Numbered from the stretch's first letter, positions 20,813-29,253 are shown. The stretch is DNA of 64,000 nucleotides from Escherichia coli (GCF_024502345.1 NZ_JALDNN010000001.1); one strand, 5' to 3'. Numbers and translations are program-made. The notes: generated from the letters alone by a model not told the origin.

Positions 20813-21082
20813 TTATTCAAGATAGTCAAGTATGTTTTTTATATTGTCAATTAAGGCGACATGCAGGTCAGGGTCATCACATTCATCTGAATGGCAATAG
20901 GAAATATGTTGAAGTATAATTCTTTTTTTGAATTCACTAACTGTACACTCCAACTCATACACCGACCGTACGATATCAATACAAGGTTCATCATCGATTA
21001 AAAAATCCTGCATTTTATTATACTTATCAGTCAGATCTTCTATCATAGAAATTAATACGGGGTCATTAACTAACATTGGCAT
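20813..21082 (-). CDS. hypothetical small acidic protein (89 aa)
   Basis: ORF 20813..21232 trimmed to the ATG preceded by AGGAGA; AT-rich; no family recognised. Confidence 0.35.
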   Translation of the reverse strand: MPMLVNDPVLISMIEDLTDKYNKMQDFLIDDEPCIDIVRSVYELECTVSEFKKRIILQHISYCHSDECDDPDLHVALIDNIKNILDYLE

Positions 21083-21470
21083 ATCTCTCCTCATAATCTG
21101 AAAGTAAAGATGGACACAGCGCTGATAAATTCCAATTCCCTTGCTTGCGGTACCGACCGGGAGGAAGATGAAACTTGTTTTTAAAAGCTCTCGTGAAAGT
21201 TTGTTGCGAATTAAAACCATACTGAAGTGCAATGTCTAGGACTGTTCTGGAAGTCAATTTCAGATCAATCGCAGCACATGATAATCGACGAGCACGAACA
21301 TATTCACCCAGCGCAACACCGGTCGTCTGTTTAAACAAACGTTGAAAATGCCATCGTGAATACCCAGACTTCTCAGCAATAAATTCTACTGGCAAGGTTG
21401 TATTCAATGAACTTTCAACCCACTGCAAAATATCTTTGACAACACTTTCAGAATATTTCCTGGTGTCCAT
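21066..21470 (-). CDS. AraC-family transcriptional regulator of the MarA/SoxS/Rob type
   Basis: ...KSGYSRWHFQRLFKQTTGVALGEYVRARRLSCAAIDLKLTSRTVLDIALQYGFNSQQTFTRAFKNKFHLPPGRYR aligns in my recollection with MarA/SoxS dual-HTH domains. Confidence 0.7.
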   Translation of the reverse strand: MDTRKYSESVVKDILQWVESSLNTTLPVEFIAEKSGYSRWHFQRLFKQTTGVALGEYVRARRLSCAAIDLKLTSRTVLDIALQYGFNSQQTFTRAFKNKFHLPPGRYRKQGNWNLSALCPSLLSDYEERYANVS

Positions 21471-21562
21471 TCTCTCCCCCCAAACCATATTCTATGAATA
21501 TATTCAAACCAGAATACGGTCTCTGAGTCTGTCATCCATGAAGAACTCAGGGACCCAACTCT

Positions 21563-27840: not shown

Positions 27841-28845
27841 ATGTCACAATCACATGATCACGAGCATGACCATACTCCAGCAGTAACCAGTGCAAACGAG
27901 CGTAAAGTCCTTATCTCCTTCCTCATGATATTCACATTTATGGTGGTCGAAGCTGTTGGAGGGATACTTTCTGGCTCATTAGCATTGCTGGCAGATGCAG
28001 GCCACATGCTTACAGATGCAGTAGCTTTGGCGCTGGCTTATGCGGCATTCCGTTTTGGCCGTCGAGCTGCTGATAGCAAACGAACCTTTGGATATTTGCG
28101 ATTTGAAGTCATCGCGGGATTCTTTAATGCCCTGACACTCTTCGCTATTGTGGCGTGGATTGCATATGAGGCATGGGAAAGGTTACAAGCTCCACCAATT
28201 ATACTGGCAGGCCCAATGCTGATCGTTGCCATTGCAGGATTGTTGGTCAACATATTGGTATTATGGATCATGACCCGTGGTGAGACCGATCATGTTAATG
28301 TCAAAGGTGCTATTTTACATGTGATGGGTGATCTATTGGGTTCTGTTGGCGCTATTGTCGCCGCTATTGTCATTTACTACACGGGCTGGACACCGATTGA
28401 CCCAATACTTTCCGTTCTTGTCGCAGCACTGGTTTTACGTAGTGCCTGGAAATTATTAGCAAAATCGCTGCACATCCTGTTAGAAGGAGCGCCTGAAGAT
28501 GCCTCCCCAGACAAGGTGGAACAGAGACTAATCAGTTCTGTTAAGGGCTTAGCAGCCGTAAGTCATATTCATGTCTGGCAAATAACCTCAGGTCGGACGA
28601 TGGCAACACTGGAAGTAAGAGCCAAGGAAGATGTGGACGTAAAAGACGTTGTGAAGCTTGTAAAACAAGAACTTTATGAGCAGTTCAAAATAGAACATGC
28701 AACTGTGGGAATCGACTGGAATTACGATCAAAACGATAATACATGCAGCCTTTCACCGACAAAACTGCGTAACGAACACGAACACGAACACGAACACGAA
28801 CACGGAAAAAAGCATAACCATTCTAGTCCAGGCCACAAACATTAA
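27841..28845 (+). CDS. czcD: cation diffusion facilitator (CzcD/ZitB-like) divalent metal efflux protein
   Basis: 334 aa; six TM helices; His-rich N-terminus (HDHEHDH) and C-terminus (EHEHEHEHEH...HNH). Confidence 0.85.
   Translation: MSQSHDHEHDHTPAVTSANERKVLISFLMIFTFMVVEAVGGILSGSLALLADAGHMLTDAVALALAYAAFRFGRRAADSKRTFGYLRFEVIAGFFNALTLFAIVAWIAYEAWERLQAPPIILAGPMLIVAIAGLLVNILVLWIMTRGETDHVNVKGAILHVMGDLLGSVGAIVAAIVIYYTGWTPIDPILSVLVAALVLRSAWKLLAKSLHILLEGAPEDASPDKVEQRLISSVKGLAAVSHIHVWQITSGRTMATLEVRAKEDVDVKDVVKLVKQELYEQFKIEHATVGIDWNYDQNDNTCSLSPTKLRNEHEHEHEHEHGKKHNHSSPGHKH
28774..28803 (+). repeat. hexanucleotide repeat (GAACAC)x5 inside czcD, encoding (EH)5
   Basis: Read directly from the sequence. 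Confidence 0.9.
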
Positions 28846-28890
28846 TCAGGCCTCTGGTGATGCACTATCAATTTAGGAGGGAGAATCATA

Positions 28891-29253
28891 ATGTCCAGCA
28901 CATCAGATTGCGGCAACATACAAGACTGTTCCGCGACAGATCATGTCGCGGAGCCAGATCTATCAATGCTCTCGCAAAACGACATTGGGCAACTTTCCGA
29001 GATTTTCCATCTACTGGGGGACCAGTCAAGACTACGAATCCTGCTTTACTGTATGCGTGGTTCGGTCTCTGTAGGCGACATTGCTGAGTCGCTCCAGTTA
29101 TCACAATCTCTGGTCAGTCATCATCTGAGGTTGTTACGAAGTGCAAGGCTTGTTCGCGGAGAGAGAAAGGGTAAGTACATATTTTATAGCATAATGGATC
29201 ACCATGTAAGTCATGTTCTTCAGGACATGGTATTTCACATAGCTGAAGAATAA
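28891..29253 (+). CDS. ArsR/SmtB-family metalloregulatory repressor
   Basis: HTH ...VGDIAESLQLSQSLVSHHLRLLRSARLV...; start codon choice uncertain. Confidence 0.7.
   Translation: MSSTSDCGNIQDCSATDHVAEPDLSMLSQNDIGQLSEIFHLLGDQSRLRILLYCMRGSVSVGDIAESLQLSQSLVSHHLRLLRSARLVRGERKGKYIFYSIMDHHVSHVLQDMVFHIAEE

Follow-up and report, generated by a model that had tools for sequence, protein, structure and literature searches.

A cluster of metal-resistance genes in a 64,000-nucleotide stretch of Escherichia coli DNA (GCF_024502345.1, NZ_JALDNN010000001.1; hereafter, the window) raises the question of whether it is a closed cassette with two stray genes at its edge or the core of a larger island in which those two genes have a place. 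The original prediction for positions 20813 to 29253 was of a transferable module flanked by insertion sequences (IS), in which three metal exporters each sit beside a regulator, together with an orphan MarA-like regulator and a small acidic open reading frame (ORF). An ORF listing of the window contains all eight of the ORFs named there, on the strands given, and PGAP already annotates all eight genes in generic terms. The region is likely the central part of a metal-efflux island that spreads by horizontal transfer, and it holds three independent one-component sensor/exporter circuits predicted to act on Zn/Cd/Pb, on Cu/Ag, and on Zn. The island is built from known kinds of parts, and its unusual part is the pair formed by the MarA-like and CsoR-like genes. 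Family assignments are based on NCBIfam and Pfam profile searches with the cut-offs of the models. The G+C content of the region is 0.43 to 0.50 in 1-kb windows.

Three metal sensor/exporter circuits

The predicted pairing of three exporters with cognate sensors held, as the pairs present their family signatures and the expected operators, namely, two MerR-type promoters and one SmtB-type 12-2-12 operator. The three circuits appear to have the testable features of CadR/PbrR-P1B-2, CueR-CopA, and SmtB/CzrA-CDF systems, respectively.

The first exporter, CadA (21563-24064, minus strand; 833 amino acids), scores 508 bits against TIGR01512 (cut-off, 313). Its motifs CPCALVISTP at residue 489, DKTGT at 533, GIK at 793 (the lysine of transmembrane helix 5), and ADVG at 815 (the DxG of transmembrane helix 6) together place it in the P1B-2 class of Zn/Cd/Pb P-type ATPases. 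The protein has a single HMA domain, with DCPVEE in place of CxxC, and a histidine-rich N terminus with 26 histidines in the first 130 amino acids, within which tandem HEGHN repeats are found (encoded at 23700-23960). CadA varies in size among copies, with 833 amino acids in the window, 831 in the related locus L003, and 821 to 823 in marine copies. In plasmid LC744504, a frameshift splits the gene, and two plasmids differ from the window through a 6-bp indel somewhere in the module.

Divergent from cadA, the cadR gene (24140-24592, plus strand) encodes a MerR regulator of the CadR/PbrR type (150 amino acids; TIGR02047, E = 2.3e-43). Matches to PF13411, PF09278, and PF00376 cover the winged helix-turn-helix (HTH) and the coiled-coil dimerization helix, and the metal-ligand cysteines are Cys78, Cys113, and Cys122, at the reference ligand positions of PbrR and CadR (78/79, 113, and 122). 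The promoter of cadA, PcadA (24091-24121, minus strand), reads TTGACC-CTCTAGTTAGATTAGGGTC-TTTAAT, and the dyad GACCCT-N11-AGGGTC lies within its 19-bp spacer, which bears out its description as a textbook MerR promoter. The same architecture is kept in a Salmonella IncFII plasmid contig (L010). A dimer of the CadR/PbrR type would sit on this dyad; binding of Cd, Pb, or Zn would remodel PcadA and switch on the P1B-2 ATPase, and the ions would be pumped from the cytoplasm. Between the convergent cadR and cueR genes lies a hairpin (24621-24662; −30.3 kcal/mol, z = −3.0) that is probably a bidirectional terminator.

This unit is similar to CadR-CadA of Pseudomonas putida, PbrR-PbrA of Cupriavidus metallidurans, and ZntR-ZntA of E. 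coli, where a divergent MerR regulator is likewise paired with a P1B-2 ATPase. It shares with the first two the TTGACC-19 bp promoter with an ACCCT...AGGGT dyad, the three regulator cysteines, the CPC, K, and DxG motifs of the ATPase, and an HMA domain of the CP-x-EE type instead of CxxC. In contrast to these systems, the regulator and the ATPase of the window both score under the NCBIfam equivalog cut-offs, the histidine-rich N terminus is unusually long, and the unit has an additional conserved araC gene and csoR-like gene behind a hairpin.

The second exporter, CopA (25160-27655, minus strand; 831 amino acids), scores 586 bits against TIGR01511 (cut-off, 397). It contains DKTGT at residue 512, and its two CASC HMA domains, together with YN at 775 and MALSS at 804, assign it to the P1B-1 (Cu/Ag) class. 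CueR (24682-25146, minus strand; 154 amino acids) scores 166.3 bits against TIGR02044 (cut-off, 147.4) and has the Cu(I) ligands Cys112 and Cys120. As had been predicted, its gene is directly 3′ of copA; it begins 13 nt past it and has its own Shine-Dalgarno sequence. The promoter PcopA (27692-27722, minus strand) reads TTGACC-TTCCCACGATGGTAAGCCT-TAAGGT; its spacer is 19 bp long, and its CueR-type dyad (CTTCCCA/TGGTAAG) is imperfect. CueR would remodel PcopA as CadR does PcadA, switching on the P1B-1 Cu(I)/Ag(I) ATPase, and co-transcription of cueR behind copA would give positive feedback. The likeness to the cue system of E. coli extends to a CueR above the TIGR02044 cut-off with both cysteines, a promoter with a 19-bp spacer, and an ATPase with P1B-1 motifs and two CxxC HMA domains. 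In E. coli, however, cueR is at a separate locus, whereas here it would be co-transcribed immediately 3′ of copA; the module in the window has no cueO, and its CopA is under the cut-off of the E. coli CopA equivalog (739 versus 1316 bits).

The third circuit pairs a CDF transporter of the ZitB/CzcD type with an ArsR/SmtB-family repressor, again as had been proposed. The transporter gene, czcD (27841-28845, plus strand; 334 amino acids), scores 277 bits against TIGR01297 (cut-off, 82), and its best named match is ZitB (E = 6.6e-99), although the ZitB equivalog is not reached (331 versus 408). As in ZitB/CzcD exporters, two HxxxD motifs are present (H55-x3-D and H160-x3-D); the ZT_dimer match is weak, and both termini are histidine rich, with HEHEHEHEHEH at the C terminus. 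The repressor gene, arsR (28891-29253, plus strand; 120 amino acids; NF033788, 86 bits versus a cut-off of 55), starts with the ATG at 28891 behind a strong AGGAGG, whereas PGAP places the start at 28966. The repressor has the α5 site D103-x-H-x10-H-x2-E (D103, H105, H116, and E119), and no α3N cysteine pair was found in its sequence. Over the czcD promoter (27775-27798, plus strand) lies a 12-2-12 element, ATGAACAcaTATTCAT (ATGAACA-CA-TATTCAT), and in marine copies the operator at the same place is a perfect palindrome, CATGAACAcaTGTTCATG.

A repressor of the SmtB/CzrA type with an α5 site would occupy this operator, and binding of Zn(II) (or Co) would release it, with derepression of the CDF antiporter gene and of the gene for the repressor itself. 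CzrA-CzrB of Staphylococcus aureus and SmtB are alike in having an α5 DxHx10Hx2E repressor without the α3N cysteine motif and a 12-2-12 TGAACA...TATTCA operator over the promoter. They differ from the circuit of the window, where the transporter comes first and the repressor second and the CDF termini are rich in histidine.

Some results weigh against a firm reading of these genes as a Zn/Cd/Pb, Cu/Ag, and Zn efflux island. The families, the signature residues, and the operator geometry are seen directly, while the metal specificities are those of the family signatures, from which we also infer induction. CueR is the only protein of the three circuits to reach the NCBIfam equivalog threshold of a named orthologue. 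CadR, at 147.3 bits, is marginally under the TIGR02047 cut-off of 151.45, and for CadA the closest equivalog is ZntA, again below its cut-off (558 versus 1240). Since CadR, the two ATPases, and the CDF protein are all below these cut-offs, exact orthology to CadR, ZntA, CopA, and ZitB is not established. A sigma-70 and terminator scanner returned promoter counts at chance level, and it misses promoters with a 19-bp spacer by its design. In a loose scan for TTGACC, a 19-bp spacer, and a −10 element, 8 matches were obtained in 64 kb (2.4 expected), and only three of them are inside the module.

The MarA-like and CsoR-like gene pair behind cadA

The araC gene (21066-21470, minus strand) encodes a basic protein of 134 amino acids (isoelectric point [pI], 9.6) that consists of only two HTH motifs (HTH_18 over residues 31 to 110, E = 1.8e-22), with no ligand-binding domain in Pfam. 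Its best NCBIfam match is the N terminus of RobA (169 bits versus a cut-off of 380), and the scores for RamA (128 versus 180), SoxS (116 versus 174), and MarA (111 versus 250) are also below the cut-offs. By its architecture, the protein appears to be of the MarA/SoxS/Rob type and not an orthologue of any named member. Proteins of the MarA/SoxS type have no sensor domain and are controlled by their amount, which is set by a distinct sensor (for example, SoxR, MarR, or RamR). The next, more distant relatives of the protein (43 to 48% identical) adjoin RND pumps, which fits a putative role as an efflux regulator.

The description of this regulator as an orphan did not survive comparison with other loci, as four diverged lineages share the order cadR<>cadA-araC-small ORF, with AraC orthologues that are 89, 73, and 64% identical in the same gene context. 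In the most diverged lineage, the Salmonella IncFII plasmid, CadA is 82%, AraC 64%, CadR 61%, and the product of the small ORF (P0013) 28% identical; in the loci L013 and L016, the order is cadA-araC-small ORF-lpxC. In the window, araC overlaps the small ORF by 11 to 17 nt. In three of the four lineages, the araC stop and the small-ORF start have an 11-nt overlap in common (ATGTTAnTTAA), preceded by GAGGAG, and in the fourth the overlap measures 23 nt, as would be expected of a translationally coupled pair. Comparison with the marine copy gave ratios of nonsynonymous to synonymous substitution rates (dN/dS) of 0.17 for araC and 0.08 (range, 0.08 to 0.12) for the small ORF, which indicates purifying selection on both. 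The conserved context, the overlap, and the dN/dS ratios together show that araC and the small ORF are real genes and that the pair belongs to the cadA unit. PADLOC returned no match for either gene, and the pair is therefore not a known defense pair.

The small gene (20813-21082, minus strand) encodes 89 amino acids, or 87 if the conserved ATG at 21076 is the start; a 139-amino-acid version reaching 21232 was rejected as an upstream over-extension. Its product, treated in the original prediction as a nondescript acidic ORF, appears instead to be a divergent member of the CsoR/RcnR family. Against PF02583 it scores 18.1 bits, below the gathering threshold of 22.8 (E = 0.0037), with the match starting at profile position 20, and all five small-protein homologues (5/5) match the same profile, with a best E value of 1.3e-6. 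A three-sequence profile searched against all PDB sequences retrieved CsoR or CstR proteins at all of the top five positions (E = 0.0015 to 0.04), and its alignment sets Cys34 and Cys63 on the conserved cysteines and His59 on the ligand histidine of the Geobacillus CsoR (4m1p). An AlphaFold 2 (AF2) model of the protein (pLDDT, 84) has three helices, and the 18 best Foldseek matches in the PDB are all CsoR, CstR, FrmR, or InrS.

All homologues keep C34, H59, and C63 without change, and these residues constitute the x-C-H-C Cu(I) sensory fingerprint. The likeness to the CsoR/CstR/RcnR/FrmR/InrS family (PF02583) thus covers the three-helix fold of about 90 amino acids as well as the best sequence and structure matches, and that to CsoR of Mycobacterium tuberculosis covers the fingerprint, the H-x3-C motif, and an equal spacing of 25 residues from cysteine to histidine. 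The small protein differs from this family in scoring below the Pfam gathering threshold, in its pI of 4.25 and net charge of −13, and in helix α1, in which M-I-E-D replaces the basic R-x-K-R of CsoR; the basic motif cannot be aligned, and the DNA-binding motif of the RxxRIxGQ type is absent. Furthermore, the small gene overlaps araC rather than adjoining a target of the copZA type, and its family is tiny. On these features, the protein would be a divergent CsoR-family protein and not a CsoR repressor.

An exhaustive HMMER search of 1.84 billion representatives revealed only two truly diverged homologues, P0009 (55% identical) and P0013 (28%); a third, about 68% identical, comes from the contig L016. 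Word-based searches retrieved only frameshifted or IS-truncated copies of the small ORF itself. In Enterobacter-type loci, P0009 is intact on many contigs with no adjacent AraC gene. In these loci, cadA is deleted, cadR and its MerR-type promoter remain, and P0009 is preceded by a 69-amino-acid ORF unrelated to araC (L006, 9752-9961). This ORF was considered as an AraC remnant and rejected, as it has no similarity to AraC.

How the small protein relates to its neighbor can be read in several ways. It could be a detachable sensor or anti-activator of the MarA-like protein rather than a DNA-binding repressor, with an acidic tetramer that binds the basic, sensor-less activator and releases or activates it when Cu(I), Cd, or a thiol-reactive compound reaches the Cys34-His59-Cys63 site. 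Consistent with this are the conserved translational coupling, the opposite charges of an activator without a ligand domain and a small protein that has lost the RxxRIxGQ-type motif of α1, and the lack of a conserved operator upstream of araC. The ANR/Aar family provides a precedent for small proteins that counteract AraC-family activators. The ExsD-ExsA pair is another (PMC7303211). A linker fusion of the two proteins modeled with AF2 from a paired four-lineage alignment, however, reached a pTM of only 0.44 with a fall in the confidence of the small domain, which is a weak test as it had no control, and the many intact copies of P0009 without a neighboring AraC gene indicate that the small protein functions without this partner. 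The anti-activator reading is quite improbable on this balance. The missing support from the AF2 fusion and the isolated P0009 together lead us to rank a role as an autonomous sensor above that of an AraC partner.

Alternatively, the small protein could be a cytoplasmic soft-metal buffer or chaperone that combines the CsoR fold with extra ligands (CHSDEC), and the MarA-like gene a hitchhiking regulator of former cargo only, so that neither gene would matter for the module as it now stands in the window. The extra conserved cysteines and histidine (C63-H64-x3-C68) in three of the four lineages with sequence, the strongly acidic surface, the position of the small gene inside the Cd/Zn/Pb unit, and the cargo (lpxC or an RND pump) that is present in relatives and deleted here all agree with such roles. 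Yet the extra ligands are missing from P0013, no characterized member of the CsoR/RcnR family is known to be other than a regulator, and both genes are under purifying selection even in copies that differ in cargo. We therefore consider this alternative unlikely.

Our preferred, though tentative, interpretation of the pair is a circuit with two tiers, by analogy with MarR-MarA or SoxR-SoxS, to which we give somewhat less than an even chance. In such a circuit, metal or thiol stress would raise the amount of the MarA-like protein via CadR-driven read-through, the CsoR-like sensor, or both. The accumulated MarA-like protein would switch on genes for efflux or the envelope, either in the adjacent cargo, which is an lpxC paralogue or, in relatives, a multidrug RND pump, or in the mar/sox/rob regulon of the host. 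SoxR-SoxS, MarR-MarA, RamR-RamA, RarA-OqxAB, and TetD of Tn10 are alike in having a two-HTH AraC protein of MarA size (about 134 amino acids) without a sensor domain; araC of the window is also near a MerR-type sensor and, in one relative, near an OqxAB/MexEF-like pump. It differs from SoxS, MarA, RamA, and RobA in being under every named equivalog cut-off and in having no local marbox, and from the MarR, RamR, and SoxR systems in that its partner gene encodes a protein of the CsoR fold.

Read-through from cadA would have to pass a hairpin with a T-rich tract past the cadA stop (21511-21562, minus strand; −22.4 kcal/mol, z = −2.5). Its core, TCTTCATGGATGA, is shared by the four lineages, a T-run is seen in L016, and the hairpin is probably a leaky terminator between cadA and araC. 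The same hairpin counts among the points that speak against coupling the pair to the metal circuits, as it could be a full terminator that uncouples araC from CadR. Likewise, no conserved operator was found upstream of araC across the four lineages, which tells against a fourth regulatory unit, and the marbox AYnGCACnnWnnRYYAAAYn has no site at up to one mismatch in the 64 kb (1.5 expected by chance); the targets of the AraC protein may lie in the host chromosome. The small protein, strongly acidic and without the basic α1 motif, sits badly with DNA binding. As a candidate araC operator, the palindrome TGAATATATTCA with its G6 tract was rejected, as it is not conserved in the other lineages and the G tract is the Shine-Dalgarno sequence.

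The pair could also represent a novel class of activator made of two proteins and responsive to metals or thiols, with the CsoR-fold protein as sensor or anti-activator in trans; on conjugative plasmids, such a pair would link soft-metal stress to multidrug efflux or to remodeling of the envelope. This idea is speculative and we give it little credence; if true, the outputs of the pair would be the RND pump or lpxC paralogue in an adjacent “cargo slot” with a MerR-type promoter or the AcrAB-TolC regulon of the host. Should the MarA-like protein be metal-induced and target efflux genes of the host, a plasmid would make antibiotic tolerance directly inducible by metals. Of the whole island, only the MarA-like/CsoR-like pair and the cargo slot might repay experiments.

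Edges, cargo slot, and spread of the island

At the left edge, an IS3-family element (19377-20595, plus strand, the start being approximate; NF033516 IS3 transposase, E = 1e-71) contains orfA (19446-19709) and orfB (19733-20566). Its right inverted repeat (IR), TGACCTGCCCCCACGATTAG, ends at 20595, and homology with other plasmids begins at 20596; no matching target-site duplication was found for this element. Immediately inside, at 20608-20641 (minus strand), lies an orphan third MerR-type promoter (TTGACC-19 bp-TTTAAT), and the same promoter precedes lpxC in the loci L001, L013, and L016. Other plasmids have an lpxC paralogue as the left neighbor, and beyond it come genes for a MerR protein and a molybdopterin oxidoreductase. 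The IS3-family element has cut the island 14 bp past the −10 element of a MerR-type lpxC promoter, removing the lpxC paralogue.

The plasmid-borne paralogue of the zinc enzyme LpxC is encoded at 10954-11901 in L001, 8271-9218 in L013, and 1308-1570 in L016. Its promoter is of the CadR/PbrR MerR type, with a perfect ACCCT...AGGGT dyad in L016, and 3′ of lpxC are genes for a MerR protein of 144 amino acids and for a molybdopterin oxidoreductase with fused FAD/NAD/2Fe-2S domains. A metal-inducible copy of lpxC, as predicted from this promoter, would be unusual. A MerR-type TTGACC-19 promoter is always found downstream of the araC/small ORF pair, leading to lpxC in the marine and Klebsiella lineage and to an RND pump in Salmonella. 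The latter, a MexEF/OqxAB-like multidrug pump, lies directly 3′ of the araC/CsoR-like pair (L010, 10400-14827), with the promoter TTGACC-19 bp-TAACCT, whose spacer contains the dyad CTGAAGT/ACTTCAG, and it is possibly a metal-inducible plasmid pump for multidrug resistance.

On the right, the block common to the window and to plasmid pKPN1481-1 extends over 20596-33424, 4 kb past the edge proposed earlier. The IS elements predicted at the module edges are therefore present at the left, where the IS3-family element abuts the module directly, but not at the right, where the nearest complete IS begins only at 33425. This element is also of the IS3 family and differs from the left one, with ends reading TGAATCGCCACGG... 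versus TGACCTGCCCCC... at the left.

A self-contained Zn/Cd/Cu cassette that its bounding IS elements move as one piece, and at whose edge the MarA-like regulator is an unrelated orphan and the small ORF has no meaning, would agree with the IS3-family element at the left, with the IS nest at the right (33425-38146) and an IS-end-like 22-mer at 29487-29508, and with the 8.9 kb that are identical across many plasmids. Nevertheless, the hallmarks of a composite transposon, two copies of the same IS and a target-site duplication, were not found, as the ends are unrelated, no duplication is present, and the shared block exceeds the proposed limits instead of ending at 29253. Other plasmids carry lpxC and not an IS at the left and have different IS elements at other positions, and four lineages keep araC and the small ORF together with cadA, with purifying selection on both of these genes. 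The unlike left and right IS elements and the wider shared block indicate that the island is not an IS-bounded cassette; the cassette reading is already largely refuted and very improbable.

The prediction of transferability was sustained. A segment of 8.9 kb is 100% identical on 17 of the 72,556 plasmids in PLSDB, whose hosts are Klebsiella pneumoniae, K. quasipneumoniae, K. variicola, K. aerogenes, Citrobacter, Raoultella, and E. coli, that is, at least four genera. The 17 carrier plasmids are 213 to 477 kb in size, and 15 of them are predicted to be conjugative. Two replicon types are represented, with pKPN1481-1 being IncFIB/IncHI1B and one E. coli carrier plasmid IncHI2A. Among 5,426 complete E. 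coli genomes, the module is present in three, once on the chromosome. The identity across the 17 plasmids, together with marine copies that are about 96% identical, indicates that the module is mobile and has already been sequenced and automatically annotated; a literature search found no paper describing it.

As a metal-resistance island, the module is routine, adding Zn/Cd/Pb, Cu/Ag, and Zn efflux to large plasmids. The IncFIB/IncHI1B hybrid type has been named the pNDM-MAR backbone (PMC12054061). Plasmids of the IncFIB/IncHI1B type are reported in published papers with carbapenemase and tmexCD-toprJ genes. Because this carrier type is found with such genes, the island could contribute to metal co-selection.

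On the donor lineage, a point raised with the original prediction, a profile scan of 100,044 species representatives for the small ORF retrieved only three loci, in Alteromonas alba, a Thalassolituus metagenome-assembled genome (MAG), and a Neptuniibacter MAG; a contig from a TARA metagenome has the same arrangement. The Alteromonas, Thalassolituus, and TARA copies have about 96% DNA identity to the window over all or most of 20596-27799, a span that holds the lpxC promoter, the small ORF, araC, cadA, cadR, cueR, copA, and the czcD operator. Homology ends right after this operator in the Thalassolituus and TARA copies, both of which extend that far, and czcD-arsR is missing from them. The Neptuniibacter locus is short and matches only 20596-21100 (95%). 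These marine copies document that the gene pools of the sea and the clinic have been linked recently, and the island is most likely of marine gammaproteobacterial origin or belongs, at least, to a mobile pool shared by marine and clinical bacteria. The small number of marine genomes tempers this origin, and the direction of transfer is the one that the distribution implies.

Other features around the metal genes

The remainder of the shared block (29254-33424) contains an IS-end-like remnant, an 82-amino-acid ORF, an AAA_13 ATPase matching PDC-S06, and an MFS fragment, and no part in metal handling was found for it. The remnant, a solo IS end of 22 nt (29487-29508) located 234 bp past arsR, is 95% identical to the terminal IR of the IS3-family element at 33425-33446. 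In plasmid LC744504, an IS66-type insertion occupies this area, and the annotation lacks arsR. The ATPase (30167-32305, minus strand; 712 amino acids) matches the PADLOC candidate defense system PDC-S06 nearly end to end (E = 1e-297). Beside it is the 82-amino-acid ORF (29638-29886, minus strand), which has no family match; both belong to the shared block of the pKPN1481-1 type. Two hairpin-forming direct repeats of 31 nt (29508-29538 and 32490-32520; 90% identical), ATGTCCGCT...AGCGGACAT, bracket this ORF and the PDC-S06 gene, which suggests that the roughly 3-kb defense segment is an insertion.

Beyond the shared block, the IS3-family element at the right has imperfect IRs of 38 nt and is interrupted by a group II intron and by an IS30, forming a nest of mobile elements (33425-38146). 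The reverse transcriptase of the intron is encoded at 34000-35523, and the IS30 (36607-37837) has IRs of 31 nt. To the left of the island, and outside it, two adjoining genes encode a sulfatase-type homologue of phosphoethanolamine transferases (16104-17603, minus strand; 499 amino acids), with CptA as the best match (E = 1e-30) and a remote similarity to MCR, and an outer-membrane β-barrel-like protein of the adhesin Adr family (17763-18503, minus strand; 246 amino acids; E = 8e-29).

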